Notes: a model not told the origin generated them from the letters alone. A DNA stretch of 64,000 bases from an uncultured archaeon (GCA_964583285.1 CAZOVD010000001.1:22558-86557), one strand, 5' to 3'; shown: positions 38,557 to 46,944, counted from the first letter of the stretch. A program made the numbers and translations.

Positions 38557-39270
38557 TTATTTTAAGAATTTTTTTACATCATCGTTTGATATAAATCTAA
38601 ATCCTTTATTATCAATTAATGCAAATTCAACTCTTTCAAGAGAAATTTTTTCTTTTTCAGGCAAACTTTTATCAAGAACTTTATATGCAAGTTGTATTGC
38701 TTTATCAATGCTCATAGATTCTTTGTATTCTTTTTCAAGTAAGTTAAGTGCAATATCTTTATTTCTTCCAACAGCAACCGCACTATATTCTGCAAGCGCA
38801 CCACTTGGTTCTGTTTGAAATAAACCTGGTCCTTTTTCATCAAATCCACCAATAATAAAAGCTACCCCAAATGGTCTTAATCCACCATATTGTGTGAATG
38901 CTTGTTTTGTTTCAGCTATTTCTTTAGCCATAACTTCAACCTGGATAGGTTCTGAATAAACCATTTTGTTATCTTGAGCTTGTCTTCTTGAGATTCTTAC
39001 AAGTCGTCTTGCATCTCCAACAAGTCCAGCAGAAACAACCCCTATATTTTCATCAACTTTAAATATTTTCTCAATTGATTCTGGTTTTATTAATTTAGAA
39101 GGAACACTTTTATCAGCAGCAAGTAAAACACCATCTTTGAAAACTATTCCAACACCAGTTGTGCCTTGATCAACTATTTTTGATGCATATTCAACTTGAT
39201 AAAGTCTTCCGTCAGGAGAAAACATAGTGCTTGCTTTATCATAAGCTGGAGCTTTTGATTGCATTGGATA
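38557..39270 (-). CDS. psmA: Proteasome alpha subunit
   Basis: YDKASTMFSPDGRLYQVEYA alpha-subunit signature. Start set at MYPMQ; the track start at 39318 adds 16 residues. Confidence 0.9.
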   Translation of the reverse strand, partial: YPMQSKAPAYDKASTMFSPDGRLYQVEYASKIVDQGTTGVGIVFKDGVLLAADKSVPSKLIKPESIEKIFKVDENIGVVSAGLVGDARRLVRISRRQAQDNKMVYSEPIQVEVMAKEIAETKQAFTQYGGLRPFGVAFIIGGFDEKGPGLFQTEPSGALAEYSAVAVGRNKDIALNLLEKEYKESMSIDKAIQLAYKVLDKSLPEKEKISLERVEFALIDNKGFRFISNDDVKKFLK

Positions 39271-39358
39271 CATAAAAAATAACCTCTTTAAAAAATAACT
39301 TATAACAATATTATTCAACTATAAACGATTTATAAATGTTGCCAAAATGGGAAAATAA

Positions 39359-39718
39359 TTAAGAAAACTCTGCACTTTCTTTTATTTTTCTTATTGTCCC
39401 ACTAACTAAAACTGGCGAAAGTATTACTTTCTTATTCCTAATTTTTTTAATAAATGCTAGCCCTGCAATAAGCTCTGTTTCTTTACCACGTTTACATTTT
39501 AAAATTGCTTTATTGTTTTTGTATAAAACCATTCTTGGATTTATTTCAGCAAGACCCTTTGAACCAAAAAAAGAAAGTAGTTCAATCCAAAAACCAAAAT
39601 AAAAATCTTTTTCGCTAATATCAGCATTTAATATTTCAAGTAAAAAATATCTTTTTTTTTCTCTTTGAGAAAGAGGAATTGTTTTTTTCTTATTTTTTTC
39701 TATTTTAATAATACTCAT
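39359..39718 (-). CDS. rnp2: RNase P protein component Pop5 (RNP2)
   Basis: 119 aa; SQREKKRYFLLEI and VLVSGTIRKIKE match the Pop5 N- and C-terminal signatures (P. horikoshii PH1481-like). Confidence 0.8.
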   Translation of the reverse strand: MSIIKIEKNKKKTIPLSQREKKRYFLLEILNADISEKDFYFGFWIELLSFFGSKGLAEINPRMVLYKNNKAILKCKRGKETELIAGLAFIKKIRNKKVILSPVLVSGTIRKIKESAEFS

Positions 39719-40266
39719 TCACACTCACCTGAATATTTTGTTGCAAGTTCATTTGAAAGTCCAAGTGTTTGTGCAAGAGCAATTCTTATTTTTGGGTGTT
39801 TTAAGTTAAGTGGGTCGCGACACCCAGAAGCAACAACAAATTTTGTTTTTTTCTTATTACAGTATCTAACAACTTCTAAATAATTTTTCCAAAATAAATG
39901 TCTTTCAAAACTATTTTTATCAAGAATTTCTTCAAACATTAAAACAACAATAGTATTATTTTCGCTTAACTTTTTTGCAAGACCTAAATCAAAAAATTGT
40001 TTTTCATTTGAAGGTTGTAGTAAAAAATTAGCCTTAACTCTAACTGCTAATTCATTAGCTTTAACTGATCCGCCAATAACTGCAATTTTTTTATTTTTTA
40101 ATTTATTAATGTCTGTTTTTTCATCAATTAAGTAACAAGGTATTTGACCAGCTTGTTTAACTTTTTTTTCTTGAACATCATTAGAAACTAAAACAATTAG
40201 TTTTTCTTTAAAATAAGTACCAACTTGTAACAACTCTTTTAGAGGTTGTGCGTAAACTATATCCAT
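39715..40266 (-). CDS. rnp3: RNase P protein component Rpp30 (RNP3), short form
   Basis: 183 aa; VVASGCRDPLNLKHPKIRIALAQTLGLSNELA resembles the Rpp30 C-terminal TIM-barrel strands; ATGA overlap with pop5; canonical superoperon position. Confidence 0.6.
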   Translation of the reverse strand: MDIVYAQPLKELLQVGTYFKEKLIVLVSNDVQEKKVKQAGQIPCYLIDEKTDINKLKNKKIAVIGGSVKANELAVRVKANFLLQPSNEKQFFDLGLAKKLSENNTIVVLMFEEILDKNSFERHLFWKNYLEVVRYCNKKKTKFVVASGCRDPLNLKHPKIRIALAQTLGLSNELATKYSGECE

Positions 40267-40317
40267 ATTATCACTTAAAACAAAACCTTTGGCTTTGTTA
40301 AATAAAAATAAACAAAA

Positions 40318-40932
40318 TTATTTACTTCTATTATTTTTATATCTAATATCTTTTTTTCTTTTTCTTTTTATACTATTCTTTTTATTTTCAATTTTATTTA
40401 CTTTTCCTGAAAATGTCTTTCCTCTTTCAGCTCTTCCTTGTTGACCAACAGTTAGGAAAGATAATTCTTTATCATTTTCAATAGTAACTGCAACTCTATC
40501 TGCCATTATTACTTCAAAATAGTGAGTTCTTCCATCTTCAGCTATTTTATAAGAACCAATTACTTCAGCATTTTCATATTTTTTTGAAGCTCTTTCTTCA
40601 GCAATAGCTTTTATACTTTTTTTTCTAGTTAATTTAGCTTGACCTTGTCTTTTTGGTCTTCTTTTATTTTTTGGTCTTGAATAAGTCCCATGCCCTTTTC
40701 TAACTTTAACTCTTAAAACAAAAATTCCTTGTTTTGCTTTATATCCAACTTGTCTAGCTGAAATTAAATTAGATGGTTTTTCTACTCTAACAACACTTTC
40801 TTTTGTTTGTCTAAATTCAAGTTCTTTATTTTTCATTAATGCGTTATAATCGTAATTTTTATCCTTTTCTGATTTCCACTCACTTTTGAATATTTTTGAA
40901 AGATATTTATTAAGTCCCACTTTGCTCACCAT
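40318..40932 (-). CDS. rpl15e: Ribosomal protein L15e
   Basis: 204 aa; QGIFVLRVKVRKGHGTYSRPKNKRRPKRQG and overall basic composition match L15e. Confidence 0.85.
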   Translation of the reverse strand: MVSKVGLNKYLSKIFKSEWKSEKDKNYDYNALMKNKELEFRQTKESVVRVEKPSNLISARQVGYKAKQGIFVLRVKVRKGHGTYSRPKNKRRPKRQGQAKLTRKKSIKAIAEERASKKYENAEVIGSYKIAEDGRTHYFEVIMADRVAVTIENDKELSFLTVGQQGRAERGKTFSGKVNKIENKKNSIKRKRKKDIRYKNNRSK

Positions 40933-41200: not shown

Positions 41201-42319
41201 TTGTTAAAGTTTATCTATTTAAATATAACTAAATCAAGAATGTTAATGGGCTTGGCTTTAAATCAACAAGAAGAAGCAAATACAGAAAAAAAAGTAAGTA
41301 TTTGTGATAAATGTTCTAAAAAATCAGTAATTAACTTAGCTTATGGCCCACATAAATTTTGTCAAACGCATTTTAACAAATTTTTTGAAAATAGATTCAA
41401 AAAAACAATTAGAAAATATAAACTGTTAAATTCTAAAGAAAAAATACTAGTTGCATTAAGTGGTGGAAAAGATTCTGTGGTATTATTACATTTATTAAAT
41501 AAATTTTATAAAAAAAGTAATACTATTTTAGCATTGATAATTGATGAAGGTGTTAAAGGATATAGAGATAAATCAGTAAAAGTTGCAATTGATAATTGTA
41601 AATTATTTAATATTGAATATAAAGTAGTTTCTTTTGAAAAAGAATTTTCAGTAACAAATGACCAAATAATGCCTTTAATTTTAAATAATAATAAACTTGG
41701 TGGAACTTGCGCATTTTGCGGAACCATGCGAAGAAATTTAATGAATAAATATGCAAAAGAACTTAAAGCAGATAAACTTGCAACAGGACATAATCTTGAT
41801 GATGAAGTTCAAAGTTTTGTAATGAATGTTTTTAATAATGATTTTACTAGACTAAAAAGAACTGGCGCTAAGGCTGGTGTTATAGAATATGATGGTTTTG
41901 TTAAAAGAATAAAACCACTTTATGAAACTCCTGAAAAAGAAATAATTGCATATTGTGCATTTAATGATATTAAACATTATTCACAACAATGTTGCCCATA
42001 TAGTTGGACTGCTAAGCGAAATGAATTTCGTGAAATGTTAAATAATTTTGAGAATAGATTTCCTGGAACACAGTTTTCAATTATGCGGTTTAATGAAAAA
42101 TTAAAAAATAATATTTTGCCTAGCGAAGAACAAAAAATAGAAATGAAATCAAAAATGAGAAAATGTGAAAAATGTGGTGAACCAACTGATAAGTTAATTT
42201 GTAAAACTTGTGAAATGATAAATACTTTAAAAAATGAAAAAAAAAGTCAAAATAAAAAAGAAAGAAATTTATCAAAATATAATTCTGCACTAACTTGCCA
42301 CTCTACAAAATACAGTTAG
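41201..42319 (+). CDS. PP-loop ATPase of the Ncs6/NcsA/Ctu1 (TtcA-like) tRNA-thiolation family
   Basis: N-terminal Zn finger CDKCSKK...CQTH, PP-loop SGGKDS, C-terminal CEKCGEPTDKLICKTCE; about 360 aa. Confidence 0.7.
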   Translation: MLKFIYLNITKSRMLMGLALNQQEEANTEKKVSICDKCSKKSVINLAYGPHKFCQTHFNKFFENRFKKTIRKYKLLNSKEKILVALSGGKDSVVLLHLLNKFYKKSNTILALIIDEGVKGYRDKSVKVAIDNCKLFNIEYKVVSFEKEFSVTNDQIMPLILNNNKLGGTCAFCGTMRRNLMNKYAKELKADKLATGHNLDDEVQSFVMNVFNNDFTRLKRTGAKAGVIEYDGFVKRIKPLYETPEKEIIAYCAFNDIKHYSQQCCPYSWTAKRNEFREMLNNFENRFPGTQFSIMRFNEKLKNNILPSEEQKIEMKSKMRKCEKCGEPTDKLICKTCEMINTLKNEKKSQNKKERNLSKYNSALTCHSTKYS

Positions 42320-43909
42320 TTATTTTTTAGCTTTCTTTTTAACATCATCAATTGCTAATATTTTTTCAAGTTTTGATGTAAATGTTTTTTCAAAATTAGT
42401 TAGCTCTTCAAGCTTTGCATCAATTGCAAGTGTTTTTTCATCAAGTTCTCTTTGAACATCAGAATTTTTTATATTTATTTGTTCAATAGCATCATTTAAT
42501 CTTTTAATATTTTCTTCCATACTCCTTAAAAATTCTTTTTTAAATTGATCAAGAAGTGAAATTTTTGTTTGAATTTCTTCAACATTAATATTTTTTTCCA
42601 TAGCACTTAAATTGTTTAATTTTACTTCAAGTTCATCAATTAAACTTTCTACTTTTGAAAGAGTCATTCTTTCTATTTTTTGTTCGGCTTCTTCAACTAA
42701 ACCTTCTGCAATATTTTTTTCAAGTTCTAAAGTTTTATTTATTCTCTCATCCATTTCCTTTATTTGTTCACTTGATTTATCAATAAATTCTTGTGCTTTT
42801 GATTTGCTTTTAATAAGTTCTGAATTCATTTCTATAATTAATTGAGATTTTGTTTTTTTTGCATCATCAAGAGTAGTTTTTATTTCAGCAAGGACTTTTT
42901 GTTGTTCATCTTTTGATTTTTGCATTATTTCAACATATTCTGATAAATCTTTTGCTTGTTTTTTAATTTCTAATATCTTTGAATCAATAATAAACGATAT
43001 TTCTTTTTGCTTTTGAGCAAGGGCTTCTTTATTACTTGAAACAATTAACTCTTTTTGAGATTCTAAAAGAACTTTGAATTGTTTTGTTTCTTTTTTAACT
43101 GCATCATTAACCTTATTTTCAACTAAAGAATCAATATCTTCTTTTAGTTTTTTCATTTCATTTAATTTAGAATTAATTGCAACAACAATTCCTTTTTTCC
43201 ACATTTGTTCTAAATCAGAATCAGAAACTTGTTTTTTTTCAAAATTATTACTAAAAGCGTTAATGTTAGCAATTGGCTTTTTTTCAACAGTAGAAAAATC
43301 TTTTGAATTGTCAACATTTCTACTTTTTTCAAGTTCTCTTAATTCTTTTTCAAGTTCTTTTTTAAAATCAAGAGAAGTTTTTTGACTATCATCTTTTTCT
43401 TTTTCCAAATTATCTTTTTCTTTACTTTCTTTTTCTTCAATATTTATTTTATTTTCACCTAACTTATTTTCATTTAAGTTATTTATAGAATTGTTAGAAT
43501 TATCTTTTTTTCCAATTAATTTTCCAAGTCTTTTTTCAATTTCACTATTACTAGCACCAGTAAATTTTTTTGAATCATCATTTAATTTCTCTTCATCTTC
43601 AAAATCTATTTCTTCAGCAGTTGGTTTTGAATCTTCGTCTTGTTCTATTTTTTTATTATCATCAGGAACTATTTTTGCTTGACTAAGTATTTGTTCATTA
43701 AAGCTAAGTCCGTCTGAATCATCAACTTCAACTTTTTTCTTTTCACTAACTTGATTTTCGCTAGATTTTGCAAGCTTAATTAAATCTTTTGCATCAATTT
43801 CTTTAATTCCAACTTCTTTTAAATTTTCTATTATTTCAGAATCCGTCACACCAAGAGTAATTAATTTTCTAATTGAATCTACTACTTCATTTTGTTTACT
43901 TGATGTCAT
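42320..43909 (-). CDS. Large acidic/Lys-rich coiled-coil protein (about 530 aa), function unknown
   Basis: Nearly continuous heptad-like E/K/L-rich sequence. N-terminal about 60-aa globular region (MTSSKQNEVVDSIRKLITLGVTDSEII...). Start set at ATG 43909. Confidence 0.5.
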   Translation of the reverse strand: MTSSKQNEVVDSIRKLITLGVTDSEIIENLKEVGIKEIDAKDLIKLAKSSENQVSEKKKVEVDDSDGLSFNEQILSQAKIVPDDNKKIEQDEDSKPTAEEIDFEDEEKLNDDSKKFTGASNSEIEKRLGKLIGKKDNSNNSINNLNENKLGENKINIEEKESKEKDNLEKEKDDSQKTSLDFKKELEKELRELEKSRNVDNSKDFSTVEKKPIANINAFSNNFEKKQVSDSDLEQMWKKGIVVAINSKLNEMKKLKEDIDSLVENKVNDAVKKETKQFKVLLESQKELIVSSNKEALAQKQKEISFIIDSKILEIKKQAKDLSEYVEIMQKSKDEQQKVLAEIKTTLDDAKKTKSQLIIEMNSELIKSKSKAQEFIDKSSEQIKEMDERINKTLELEKNIAEGLVEEAEQKIERMTLSKVESLIDELEVKLNNLSAMEKNINVEEIQTKISLLDQFKKEFLRSMEENIKRLNDAIEQINIKNSDVQRELDEKTLAIDAKLEELTNFEKTFTSKLEKILAIDDVKKKAKK

Positions 43910-43959
43910 AATACCAATATAGAAATAACATTTGTATAATAAAAATGTTTTTAAAGTCA

Positions 43960-44178
43960 CTAAGGAGAGACAAGTATTACGCTATCGCCTCTAACTAAAA
44001 CTTTTCCATAATTTGTTTTCATTTCTCCGTTTTCTATTTGAGAAGCATTTTCTAAATTTAAATTCATATGAATATCAAATGCTTTTAATTTTCCTCTTAT
44101 TTGTTTATCTCCTTTTAAAACTACTAATATTTCTTTGTTTAATGCGTCATTTAACAAATCAAATGGTCTATTGCTCAT
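43960..44178 (-). CDS. Sm-like archaeal protein (SmAP/LSm)
   Basis: 72 aa; Sm1 (ILVVLKGDKQIRGKLKAFDIHMNLNLENA) and Sm2 (VLVRGDSVILVSP) motifs. Confidence 0.85.
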   Translation of the reverse strand: MSNRPFDLLNDALNKEILVVLKGDKQIRGKLKAFDIHMNLNLENASQIENGEMKTNYGKVLVRGDSVILVSP

Positions 44179-44187
44179 AAAAACACC

Positions 44188-44970
44188 TCACTTTCTTTTG
44201 AACTTTGACAATATTCTTTGTAAGAACCCTAATTTTTTTTCTTTATTTTCAACTACTTTAAGTCCAGTTAATCTTGAAGCAATTTTTTGAAATTCTTTTG
44301 CTGCTTCACTATCAGGTTTTCTTATTGAAACTGGATAAACTTTTTGTTGCATAAAAGTTTTTCTAACTTCGCCATCAAATGGAACTGCACCATAAATTGG
44401 AAGTTCTAAAATACTTGATATTTCTTGTTTGCTTATTTCTCCTTTTTCATTCATTATAAAATTAACAACAACTCCAATAACTTTTGATCTTAGTCTTTGA
44501 GCCACAATTTTTGTTTTTAATGCATCAGCAATTGCTGGTGAAGTTGGCATTGTAACAATAAGAGTTTCTTGCGCTGAACTAAGAGCACTTAAAACATTTT
44601 TTTCAATACCTGCCGCAGCATCAAGTAAAATAAAATCATAACTATCTTCAAGTTGTTCAACTATTGAAATTAATCGTTCGCTATCAACTCTTTTATAATT
44701 ATCTAAACTTAGTCCTGATGGAATAAAATGAAGTCCTTCTGGACCATCATAAATAGCATCATGAACTTGAGCTTCACCTAAAAGAACATCATGAAGTGTT
44801 ATTGGAGAAGATTGCATTCCTAAAATTAAAGATAAATTTGCCATTGCAACATCAGCATCAATTAAAAGAACTTTTTTTCCAAGTCTTGATAAACAAATTC
44901 CAAGATTTGCAGTAAGTGTGGTTTTACCAGTGCCGCCTTTTCCAGATGCAATTGCAATTACTCTAGCCAT
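44188..44970 (-). CDS. MinD/ParA-family P-loop ATPase (archaeal MinD-like)
   Basis: 260 aa; deviant Walker A IASGKGGTGKTT, Walker A-prime and B (LLIDAD...ILLDAAAG). Confidence 0.85.
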   Translation of the reverse strand: MARVIAIASGKGGTGKTTLTANLGICLSRLGKKVLLIDADVAMANLSLILGMQSSPITLHDVLLGEAQVHDAIYDGPEGLHFIPSGLSLDNYKRVDSERLISIVEQLEDSYDFILLDAAAGIEKNVLSALSSAQETLIVTMPTSPAIADALKTKIVAQRLRSKVIGVVVNFIMNEKGEISKQEISSILELPIYGAVPFDGEVRKTFMQQKVYPVSIRKPDSEAAKEFQKIASRLTGLKVVENKEKKLGFLQRILSKFKRK

Positions 44971-45446
44971 TATTCTTTCACCGATTCAAATTCTTTTTTT
45001 AAAATATTTTTATTTTCATCAAGAAGTGCACTTAATTCAAATGCAAGCGCTCTTAATTCTAAATTGGATAATTCACTACCAGCTCTAACAATAAAAACTT
45101 TTTTATTTAAATTAAAAAGCATAAACCAACCATCTTCTTTTTTTATCAAAACTGTTTCTGTTTGCGGTAATTCGCTTTTAATGTATGAAAGCATTGCAGT
45201 ACCAATCATACCGTCATTATGTTCACTTGAATCACTTGAAACTATTACACTACCATCAAAATTTGTAACAACAAAAGAGTCAACTAAATGTTTTCTTTTT
45301 AATATTTCTAAATTTTTTCCAAAATCTTTTGAAAATATATAATTGTGTTTTGACAAAAAATCTCTTAAAAACTCAACTTGATAATTTGACTTTGAATTAT
45401 CAACTTCTTTTTTCTTAAAAAATCTTGAAAATAAATTTGATACCAT
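44970..45446 (-). CDS. Roadblock/LC7 (MglB-like) domain protein
   Basis: 158 aa; core LVDSFVVTNFDGSVIVSS...GTAMLSYI...GWFMLFNLNKKVFIVRAG fits the Roadblock alpha-beta-beta-alpha-beta pattern; start overlaps the minD stop. Confidence 0.5.
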   Translation of the reverse strand: MVSNLFSRFFKKKEVDNSKSNYQVEFLRDFLSKHNYIFSKDFGKNLEILKRKHLVDSFVVTNFDGSVIVSSDSSEHNDGMIGTAMLSYIKSELPQTETVLIKKEDGWFMLFNLNKKVFIVRAGSELSNLELRALAFELSALLDENKNILKKEFESVKE

Positions 45447-45465
45447 TTAAATCACTTAAATATAA

Positions 45466-45924
45466 TTAATTTTTTAAAACACCTAAACCAAACCTGTCTA
45501 AAAAATCATTTTTTTCATTTTGAACTAAAAATTTAGCTTCAAAACTATCAGGAATTAGCTTTGCAAGGTCTTTTAAAGATATTTTGTTTGAAAGTAAAAT
45601 TTTTTCATCAAAAGCAGTTATTAAATCAACTTGACTTTTTGTTAGTTCTACTGCTTGAAAAAATCCTTCACCTTTTGTTTGATTAAAAAAATAATTTAAA
45701 GCATCATTTGACTTAAAAGTTTGCTTTAGAGTAAGACATTCAACAACACAGGCAATCATTTCACCATTTCTAAAAAAAATAACTCCTTCTTCAATACAAT
45801 TCCCCTTAACTGTTTGAATAATATAACCATTAAATTGACGATTATTAAATTCTTGAGCAATAACTAAAAAATTTATTGGCAAAGGAGCTTTTGAAATAAC
45901 TGTGCCTACTGGAAAATTCATCAA
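45466..45924 (-). CDS. Hypothetical protein (152 aa), possibly another Roadblock/longin-like fold
   Basis: GYIIQTVKGNCIEEGVIFFRNGEMIACVVE segment is Roadblock/longin-like; no firm motif. Confidence 0.3.
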   Translation of the reverse strand: MMNFPVGTVISKAPLPINFLVIAQEFNNRQFNGYIIQTVKGNCIEEGVIFFRNGEMIACVVECLTLKQTFKSNDALNYFFNQTKGEGFFQAVELTKSQVDLITAFDEKILLSNKISLKDLAKLIPDSFEAKFLVQNEKNDFLDRFGLGVLKN

Positions 45925-46382
45925 ACCACTTTTTTTCCTTTTAAAAATATAACTTTATCAGCAGTATTTTTTAATGCTGAAGCACTCATTTCTTCAGCCA
46001 TTATTGCAATAGTTTCTTTTCCCCTATTTTTTGCTTTTATTAATGCTGGTAAAAAATCACTATCTCTTGTTGCAAATACTATTGTATCTATTTCTTCATT
46101 AAAAACTGTTTCTGTCGCATCGCACGCCATTGCAACATCAACATCAGTAGTAGTTATTATTGGTTCAAATCCTTGATTTACTACTGCTTCTACTAATTTA
46201 TTTGAAGCAAATTGATTTAGATAAACTCTGCCTATTTTAATAGAGCCATGTTTAACTGCCTCTTTTTTTATCATTTCAAGGTCAATACCAAACTCTTTTC
46301 TAAGCAAATTTGGTCCATCTACAAAAACAGCCATTTTTTTCTCACCATTTCCAAAAAGCTGTTTTAATTTACTTCGCAACAT
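45921..46382 (-). CDS. NYN/LabA-like (PIN-related) nuclease domain protein
   Basis: 153 aa; VFVDGPNL...TTTDVDVAMACDA...VFATRDSDFLPAL acidic-residue pattern typical of the NYN/LabA domain. Confidence 0.6.
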   Translation of the reverse strand: MLRSKLKQLFGNGEKKMAVFVDGPNLLRKEFGIDLEMIKKEAVKHGSIKIGRVYLNQFASNKLVEAVVNQGFEPIITTTDVDVAMACDATETVFNEEIDTIVFATRDSDFLPALIKAKNRGKETIAIMAEEMSASALKNTADKVIFLKGKKVV

Positions 46383-46557
46383 AAAATCACTACTAAATAT
46401 TGTATAAATATAATCTTAAATATAATACTAATTACATTTATATTATATAAAATCTTTGAATAAAAGGCTTTAAAACAGTTTTTTTTATATATGATTAGTT
46501 TTATAAATTAAATTTAATTTATAATATCTAACAAAAAATATGAGGAATGTGAAATAT

Positions 46558-46944
46558 ATGGTTGATGAAAAAAAATTTGTAAATGCAGGAACACTAAAAC
46601 CTGGTAATTATGTACTTATTGATGATGAGGTTTGCCAAGTTAAAAGTACTGAAAAATCAAAACCAGGAAAACACGGTGCAGCAAAGGTTAGAATAGTAGC
46701 ATTCAATATTTTTAATGGACAAAAAAAAGGACTTCTAAAAGGAACTGATAGTGAAGTAGATCAACCAATAATAGTTAAGAAAAACGGGCAAGTAGTTGCA
46801 GTTATTGGAGAAGTTGTTCAATTAATGGACATGGAAAACTATGAAACAAAAGATGCTCCAAAACCAGAATTCCCTTTAGCTTCAGGTGATGAAGTTGAAT
46901 ATCAACAATGGGGAACTAACGTTAAAATTAATAGAAAGAAATAG
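46558..46944 (+). CDS. eif5a: Translation initiation factor 5A (aIF-5A)
   Basis: Hypusine loop KSKPGKHGAAKVR and SH3-like/OB two-domain layout. Start at 46558 (GAGG about 11 nt upstream) rather than 46540. Confidence 0.85.
   Translation: MVDEKKFVNAGTLKPGNYVLIDDEVCQVKSTEKSKPGKHGAAKVRIVAFNIFNGQKKGLLKGTDSEVDQPIIVKKNGQVVAVIGEVVQLMDMENYETKDAPKPEFPLASGDEVEYQQWGTNVKINRKK

Follow-up and report, generated by a model that had tools for sequence, protein, structure and literature searches.

The gene cluster described here lies at positions 42320–46382 of a 64,000-nucleotide stretch of DNA from an uncultured archaeon (GCA_964583285.1, CAZOVD010000001.1:22558-86557), referred to throughout as the window. 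ORF calling in the window yields six consecutive open reading frames (ORFs) on the minus strand which, in order of transcription (NYN, P5, P4, MinD, Sm, CC), encode a NYN-domain protein, a DUF2226-family protein (P5), a protein of predicted Roadblock fold (P4), a MinD ATPase, an Sm protein and a long helical protein (CC). Labels on the named relatives of P4 and P5 place the host in or near the Iainarchaeota (Diapherotrites), a DPANN phylum of tiny-celled archaea. The genes are as follows.

45921–46382, minus strand: NYN-domain protein of the TIGR00288 family, first gene of the cluster
45466–45924, minus strand: P5, DUF2226-family protein (ORF of 152 amino acids; 45466–45921 and 151 amino acids from the conserved ATG)
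44970–45446, minus strand: P4, putative divergent Roadblock/LC7-fold protein, 158 amino acids
44188–44970, minus strand: MinD ATPase of archaeal type, 260 amino acids
43960–44178, minus strand: Sm protein (SmAP/LSM), canonical archaeal, 72 amino acids
42320–43960, minus strand: CC, helical protein (ORF of 546 amino acids; 42320–43909 and about 529 amino acids from the conserved ATG)

A preliminary description of this DNA had proposed six minus-strand genes with overlapping or near-overlapping junctions, and direct reading of the sequence confirms both the ORFs and the junctions. The NYN stop codon overlaps the conserved P5 start in the sequence TGATG, P5 and P4 are separated by 19 nt, and the P4 stop overlaps the MinD start in TAATG. 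The tightest junction of the cluster is that between MinD and Sm, with 9 nt (including a GGTG) from the MinD stop to the Sm start, and 48 nt separate the Sm stop from the conserved ATG of CC. Starts and stops had been exchanged in that description, which set the MinD start just after the Sm stop and the Roadblock start over the MinD stop; in fact the start of MinD overlaps the stop of P4, and Sm begins after MinD has ended.

The arrangement is conserved across the Iainarchaeota. A pattern scan with the P4 alignment, using one genome per GTDB species, returned 73 loci from 72 species representatives, in which the identity of P4 to the window protein ranges from 78% down to 33%. All ORFs at these loci were annotated with profiles of the six proteins, and only loci whose contig leaves room for the gene in question were counted. 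The same-strand order DUF2226, P4, MinD, Sm recurs in 72 species-level genomes: P5 is directly upstream of P4 in 70 of 70 loci, MinD is downstream of P4 in 65 of 66, and Sm follows MinD in 59 of 60. NYN immediately precedes P5 in 40 of 65 loci (62%), and a CC homologue is found inside the locus in 45 of 47 cases. The median gaps are 4 nt (NYN–P5), 15 nt (P5–P4), 76 nt (P4–MinD), 9 nt (MinD–Sm) and 188 nt (Sm–CC), and the MinD–Sm gap is at most 20 nt in 53 of 65 loci. The Sm–CC gap reaches 4.2 kb, and CC is at times on the opposite strand. The conserved core is thus P5-P4-MinD-Sm, with NYN as a frequent member and CC as a loose neighbour. The six-gene module first proposed is partly supported, with qualifications for NYN, given its count, and for CC, given its loose linkage.

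The order NYN-DUF2226-P4-MinD-LSM is also present in four of four contigs bearing the weakest relatives of P4 (L076, L077, L078 and the P0297 contig). The conservation of the neighbourhood, which the preliminary description had put forward as a check, is accordingly found both in the 72 species representatives and in the four most distant loci. Because the arrangement is kept in more than 70 species with P4 identity down to 33%, it is far beyond chance. The P4 family itself is narrow: when 1.84 billion representative proteins were searched exhaustively with its profile, only 67 P4-like clusters were recovered. A metagenome scan with the divergent pair, aimed at members beyond the Iainarchaeota, found one locus only, on a Joint Genome Institute (JGI) contig already known for the protein cluster of L076.

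The genes of the set differ markedly in their rates of change. In the distant half of the set, median identities to the window proteins are 65% for NYN, 60% for Sm and 58% for MinD, against 40% for P4, 32% for P5 and 29% for CC; NYN is the slowest-evolving gene of the set, with a median identity of 75%. The much faster evolution of P4, P5 and CC is what lineage-specific adaptors would show.

The MinD ATPase matches the archaeal profile TIGR01969 (minD_arch) at 295.3 bits (cutoff 201.75, E = 2.8e-88) over its full length, with residues 3–254 aligned to profile positions 1–250 of 251, whereas the bacterial profile TIGR01968 gives 150 bits, under its cutoff of 212.9. These scores uphold the initial naming of the gene as a MinD with a deviant Walker A motif. 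The motif, SGKGGTGKT, conforms to the signature-lysine pattern xKGGxGK[ST] and is the sole deviant Walker A found in the window; GKGGxGK is kept in 67 of 67 MinD orthologues. The protein ends in an amphipathic helix, KKLGFLQRILSKFKRK, and a GF(L/F)xRLFSxFKKK-like motif is present in 67 of 67 orthologues, either at the C-terminus or before an added tail. This motif is the top amphipathic window of the protein (99th percentile of hydrophobic moment, a crude within-protein ranking and not a calibrated membrane-targeting predictor, since peptides of Escherichia coli MinD and MinE scored low on it). Its sequence resembles that of the membrane-targeting helix in bacterial MinD and in Haloferax MinD4.

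In six species the MinD gene carries an in-frame insertion of 467–468 amino acids within the Walker A motif (L037:8494-10737, L038:4161-6407, L041:9075-11315, L050:3345-5558, L074:8437-10740 and L075:8435-10738). The insertion (S...SN) is placed between GKGGVGK and T; it begins with Ser, ends with Asn and is followed by Thr, a signature that suggests an intein in the P-loop. A LAGLIDADG-like motif is present in two of the six insertions. To our knowledge, no MinD intein has been reported. A free-standing LAGLIDADG homing-endonuclease ORF of 255 amino acids lies between P4 and an intact MinD at L076:7567-8334, and has its own stop codon immediately ahead of the MinD ATG. The putative inteins and this stand-alone ORF suggest that mobile endonuclease genes target the operon in both forms.

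P4 is best described as a divergent protein of predicted Roadblock fold. Its AlphaFold2 model (mean predicted local distance difference test (pLDDT) score of 65.7, with core blocks at 69–86) has the Roadblock topology α-β-β-α-β-β-β, and one JGI cluster among its relatives bears the COG label Roadblock/LC7/MglB. Profile hidden Markov models (HMMs) give a different picture. Robl_LC7 (PF03259) has no match at E ≤ 1 to the window protein or its orthologues (34 of 34 fail); as a positive control, Robl_LC7 members match PF03259 at 1e-19 to 6e-29. No Pfam or NCBIfam family matches the window P4 or the 34 orthologues, ten distant relatives have no Roadblock-family Pfam match at E ≤ 0.1, and a P4 profile finds no Roadblock chain among PDB sequences at E ≤ 10. 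When the P4 alignment was compared by hhalign with a thin five-sequence alignment of the Roadblock superfamily (sequences validated against Pfam), the probability was only 48% (E = 1.8e-4, 102 columns), with an alignment that spans helix α1 to the C-terminal helix. As the HMMs miss P4 while the topology of its model fits, it is named here a Roadblock-fold protein and not a demonstrated PF03259 member. Of the Roadblock/LC7 assignment first given to this gene, then, the fold is retained through the model, and the HMMs do not support the family.

The N-terminus of P4 is a conserved, amphipathic and basic stretch, MVSNLFSRFFKKK (consensus ..L..FA.KVLD.DDT), which lies in the top 2% of its own sequence by hydrophobic moment. 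It is followed by a conserved acidic and helical segment, an invariant LK(K/R)KHxVD, the Roadblock core and a long C-terminal helix.

P5 belongs to a family with a name but no described role. The gene had been entered as an unknown; it is a DUF2226 member and forms part of the core with P4 and MinD. The window protein itself matches DUF2226 (PF09987) at 18.4 bits, where the gathering score is 22, and over profile positions 17–104 of 252 only. The match is found in 29 of 31 diverse orthologues (best E = 6.2e-12), and PF09987 is also the annotation of the P5 neighbours in L076, L077, L078 and the P0297 contig. DUF4388 (PF14332), taken here to be the PATAN domain, is matched weakly, at E = 6.9e-3 by the window P5 and at E < 0.01 by 3 of 31 orthologues (best 1.9e-3). 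The AlphaFold2 model of P5 is confident (pLDDT 85.9). The protein consists of a compact α/β domain, a variable linker and a conserved basic-hydrophobic stretch at the C-terminus, ..SK.D.FKKLGL.G., in which the glycine does not vary, even among the most diverged members. No relative of DUF2226 with a solved fold was found, and no literature on its function. DUF2226 is annotated as conserved in archaea; a second DUF2226 profile search, made for members beyond the Iainarchaeota, had only close relatives among its best 120 matches. P4 and P5 were also compared as possible mutual paralogues, which an hhalign probability of 0.7% rules out.

One sub-lineage (L058, L059, L067, L070, L074 and L075) has an acidic tail (...LPEISEDSIEIEE) after the amphipathic helix of MinD. 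With the exception of L070, the members of this group also have a P4 that is shorter at the N-terminus and ends in ...KGKSF, and a P5 with a diverged N-terminus (MQLVEGR or MKLVEGR). This could be co-divergence of MinD, P4 and P5, or just shared phylogeny.

The last gene, CC, had been described as a 530-amino-acid protein that is almost purely coiled coil, which holds for only part of its length. In the orthologue alignment the first 17 codons of the 546-amino-acid ORF are not conserved, and the product is therefore taken to be about 529 amino acids long, from the ATG at 43909. In the numbering of the 546-amino-acid ORF, it comprises a conserved small N-terminal helical domain (about 20–65), a variable low-complexity linker of about 180 residues rich in K, E, N and D (about 65–245), and a conserved, proline-free, coiled-coil-like helical domain (about 246–540). 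Only the C-terminal ~300 amino acids thus form the conserved proline-free helical region; the last 301 contain no proline and two glycines. No Pfam or NCBIfam family matches the window protein (E ≤ 1) or 32 orthologues (Pfam/NCBIfam, E ≤ 0.01), and the weak matches of the CC profile in the PDB (α-latrotoxin, E about 1e-4; apolipoprotein A-I, E about 3e-4) are probably compositional. By sequence comparison, CC is lineage-specific. A fragment of SMC or Rad50, which the preliminary description had named as the identity to be excluded, was rejected: at these thresholds, neither the window protein nor the 32 orthologues match an SMC/Rad50 family. Near the four most distant loci no unannotated gene of CC-like length was found, and the CC profile, run on L076 only, had no match there. 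A homologue of the helical protein is present in 45 of 47 loci, but as a loosely spaced and sometimes oppositely oriented companion; we regard it as a scaffold or cargo candidate that is only loosely linked.

Taken together, these proteins are best read as a ParA/MinD positioning system with partner types previously undescribed; the suggestion of a positioning function comes from family membership and sequence motifs. Within it, P5, P4 and MinD would be a single functional unit: a MinD switch at the membrane, with P4 and P5 as its dedicated regulators or adaptors. We hold this proposal with moderate confidence, as somewhat better than an even prospect. In the mechanism proposed, MinD dimers with bound ATP would attach to the cytoplasmic membrane by their conserved amphipathic helix at the C-terminus, a step supported by sequence conservation and by analogy. 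A P4 dimer would be drawn to the membrane by its own amphipathic basic N-terminus, may dock on MinD-ATP and may control its hydrolysis and release, as a functional analogue of MinE or MglB. P5 may serve as an adaptor or second regulator, with its conserved C-terminal peptide, carried on a flexible linker, docking on MinD; the peptides with which ParB, MinE and PomX activate their ATPases have the same format. The resulting nucleotide-driven membrane gradient would position a cargo, for which the division machinery and a surface or pilus apparatus are the likeliest candidates. CC, with its intrinsically disordered region (IDR) and coiled coil, may be a scaffold or cargo comparable to PomX, McdB or DipC.

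A more specific version, in which P4 is a MinE-like activator that, with the DUF2226 protein, forms a self-organizing membrane oscillator or gradient to position the division or attachment machinery in DPANN archaea, is tentative and, in our estimate, fairly unlikely. Given the annotation of DUF2226 as an archaeal conserved family, its partnership with MinD might extend to other archaea, with HVO_0596 beside Haloferax minD2 as a candidate; such an extension would provide a general answer to how archaeal MinD is regulated.

Several points weigh against the reading of P5, P4 and MinD as a MinD switch. The model of P4 is only moderately confident, the Robl_LC7 HMM is silent on it and its profile alignment with the Roadblock superfamily is of modest probability; the link of DUF2226 to PATAN/DUF4388 consists of weak matches (E about 2e-3 to 7e-3 in 3 of 31 members); and the hydrophobic-moment ranking of the helices is crude. 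The tightest junction, that of MinD with Sm, is left unexplained by the proposed mechanism. No FtsZ, SepF or pilus gene is present in the cluster, and no FtsZ signature was found in the window. The remaining points concern the single exception among the species and the surroundings of the cluster.

The exception is L061, in which NYN-P5-P4 (7923–9477) are present without MinD. No MinD, Sm or CC is found in the 6.4 kb downstream of P4 (tblastn is negative for MinD), and P4 is directly followed by a PP-loop/Zn-ribbon gene (TtcA/NcsA-like) that in the window sits beyond CC. The cause of the gap could be deletion, relocation or misassembly.

The cluster is flanked in the window on one side by genes for the proteasome α-subunit, RNase P Rpp14 and p30 and ribosomal protein L15e (38557–40932), and on the other by aIF5A (46540–46944), which is divergent from the cluster. 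The intergenic region towards aIF5A is the last feature to be listed.

46383–46539, no strand assigned: putative promoter region, AT-rich, 157 nt, divergent intergenic between NYN and aIF5A (from reading of the sequence)

This region holds TATA-like TTTATATA stretches and is probably the promoter region of the cluster; the motifs are non-specific, because the GC content of the genome is only 26% (22–32% in the window). On the other side of the cluster, a PP-loop ATPase gene (41201–42319, plus strand, 372 amino acids) is convergent with CC, and its end at 42319 abuts the end of the CC stop at 42320, with no spacer between the two genes. Its product has CxxC motifs at both ends and, judged from the sequence and the Pfam labels of the L001 homologue, resembles a TtcA/NcsA-like tRNA thiolation enzyme.

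Genes for aIF5A, L15e, RNase P and the proteasome adjoin the cluster also in L001, L076 and L077. Small DPANN genomes retain long syntenic blocks, and gene order alone therefore overstates functional coupling. The flank of proteasome α, RNase P and L15e resembles the periphery of the archaeal exosome/proteasome superoperon; its recurrence in several relatives may explain the presence of Sm and NYN at this site. Conserved synteny without shared mechanism, in which unrelated housekeeping genes are co-transcribed and P4 and P5 have functions unrelated to MinD, would account for these neighbours (aIF5A, L15e, RNase P p30/Rpp14, proteasome α and SBDS, in the window, L001, L076 and L077), for Sm and NYN as RNA genes without a known MinD link, and for L061, which retains NYN-P5-P4 without MinD. 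We consider it quite unlikely, as the NYN-P5-P4-MinD-Sm core survives differing flanks. Among the four loci with the weakest P4 relatives, the flanks are entirely different in one and in part different in the remaining three. On the P0297 contig, Peptidase_M50, Memo and AMMECR1 lie upstream and a pyrophosphatase downstream, and L078 has yet another gene set. Moreover, the stop/start overlaps and gaps of at most 20 nt are kept down to 33% P4 identity, and Roadblock-fold and PATAN-related proteins are both known as neighbours and regulators of P-loop NTPases.

Sm and NYN, whose assignments in the preliminary description are both confirmed, are members of well-defined families. Sm matches PF01423 (E = 6.6e-21, 74.2 bits) and the archaeal SmAP equivalog NF001963 (103.9, cutoff 101), and NYN matches PF01936 (E = 4.9e-26, 92.4 bits) and TIGR00288 (190.6 bits, cutoff 178.45). 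They are probably housekeeping genes of RNA metabolism that share the transcript for co-expression and not for mechanism. An RNA-centred module, with MinD, P4 and P5 tethering or positioning a complex of NYN nuclease and Sm ring for RNA processing at the membrane, would explain why, of the neighbours of MinD, Sm is coupled to it most tightly (median gap 9 nt, 59 of 60 loci), why NYN stands first in the cluster in 62% of genomes and in all four of the most distant loci, and why the cluster adjoins RNase P subunit genes. It is nevertheless very improbable: NYN is missing in 25 of 65 loci while the other genes stay, Sm scores as a canonical housekeeping SmAP equivalog, no non-coding RNA element was found in the cluster region with Rfam, and literature searches found no precedent.

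A third alternative retains the triad of MinD, P4 and P5 and changes its task: a FleN/FlhG-type regulator of the assembly of a type IV pilus, archaellum or attachment structure, instead of a Min-like system for the division site. MinD of arCOG00589 is classed as a FleN/MinD regulator that is expected to serve type IV pili even if encoded alone, and loci for type IV pili frequently include Roadblock/LC7 proteins of arCOG02603 (PMC4858521). In Haloferax, the machinery of motility and chemotaxis is placed by MinD4 and MinD2, neither of which affects division, and MglA/MglB/PATAN modules control the polarity of pilus-based motility in bacteria. No pilin, PilB/TadC-like or archaellum gene, however, is present in the cluster or its immediate flanks (window and annotated loci), and P4 is not recognizable by HMM as arCOG02603/Robl_LC7. 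We judge this alternative unlikely.

Under the preferred reading of a MinD switch with P4 and P5 as regulators or adaptors, the cluster bears on a specific gap. Archaea possess MinD but no known MinE or MinC (10.1101/2020.04.03.021790), and for the factors that switch archaeal MinD on and off, the work in Haloferax could only infer partners (PMC11588486; 10.1101/2020.04.03.021790). Their tight, conserved operon with MinD makes P4 and P5 the best available candidates for such partners. The operon names two small, soluble and expressible candidate regulators of archaeal MinD, and points to specific peptides, namely the N-terminus of P4, the C-terminal tail of P5 and the C-terminal helix of MinD. 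That the hosts are uncultivated is no barrier, because ATPase, liposome and supported-bilayer assays apply directly. The cluster also provides a first functional context for DUF2226. The Roadblock fold has so far been known for regulating small GTPases; if P4 regulates MinD, the reach of Roadblock/longin regulators would extend to ParA/MinD ATPases.

Literature searches found no publication that describes the combination of NYN, DUF2226, Roadblock, MinD and Sm, in agreement with the initial impression that it is not a described system. Its parts have counterparts elsewhere. Among the six proteins, no match to MinE, MinC, DipA, DipB (DUF2073) or DipC was found (Pfam/NCBIfam, E ≤ 1). As in MinCDE, there is a MinD-family ATPase with a deviant Walker A motif and, at the level of sequence, a C-terminal amphipathic membrane-targeting helix, together with a small co-transcribed partner, P4, whose amphipathic basic N-terminus recalls the N-terminal membrane-targeting sequence of MinE; an ATP-dependent cycle of membrane binding and release would be the expected logic. 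Partners such as ParB and MinE activate ParA/MinD ATPases through short terminal peptides that have a basic residue at their centre (PMC12462528). Unlike in MinCDE, the candidate regulator here has a predicted Roadblock fold, there is a second partner of the DUF2226 family, and MinD is of the archaeal subfamily TIGR01969.

The polarity module of MglA, MglB and PATAN, known from Myxococcus, Thermus and other bacteria, offers a likeness of architecture, mirrored here by the MinD ATPase, the Roadblock-fold P4 and the putatively PATAN-related P5; in the passage of PMC4316618 that cites Makarova 2006, PATAN-domain genes are described as adjoining MglB/MglA. The NTPase at this locus, however, is a ParA/MinD-type ATPase and not a Ras-like GTPase, P4 is invisible to the Robl_LC7 HMM, and the DUF2226 protein P5 is only weakly similar to DUF4388/PATAN.

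PomXYZ and McdAB pair a ParA/MinD-family ATPase with coiled-coil or disordered scaffolds that bear a short ATPase-activating peptide, and the present cluster likewise has such an ATPase near a coiled-coil and disordered protein, CC. Their ATPases, however, use the nucleoid as matrix and lack a membrane-targeting helix, and PomX, PomY and McdB have no detectable homology to CC, which is only loosely linked.

Dip is a three-protein archaeal membrane oscillator that, within DPANN, has been reported only in Nanohalarchaeota (PMC13228585). Its cast is analogous to that proposed here: an NTPase bearing an amphipathic helix, a small protein by which this NTPase is released from the membrane, and a disorder-rich third component. 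The identity of the cluster with Dip is ruled out, as the proteins are different and non-homologous: DipA is a GTPase, DipB a SepF-like DUF2073 protein and DipC a Zn-ribbon/IDR protein, and none has homology to the six proteins.

Haloferax, finally, has archaeal MinD paralogues that position machinery, and its minD2, too, has a small co-transcribed partner. MinD4 requires a C-terminal membrane-targeting sequence (10.1101/2020.04.03.021790). The minD2 gene is co-transcribed with a small uncharacterized gene of 584 nt, HVO_0596, whose product is predicted by AlphaFold 3 to contact MinD2 via its C-terminal residues (PMC11588486). In contrast to P4 and P5, the small gene is downstream of minD2 and not upstream, its deletion gave no phenotype, and the Haloferax minD2/MinD4 genes have no Sm, NYN or Roadblock context. 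The pair of HVO_0596 and minD2 is nonetheless the closest experimental case to the P5-P4-MinD operon.

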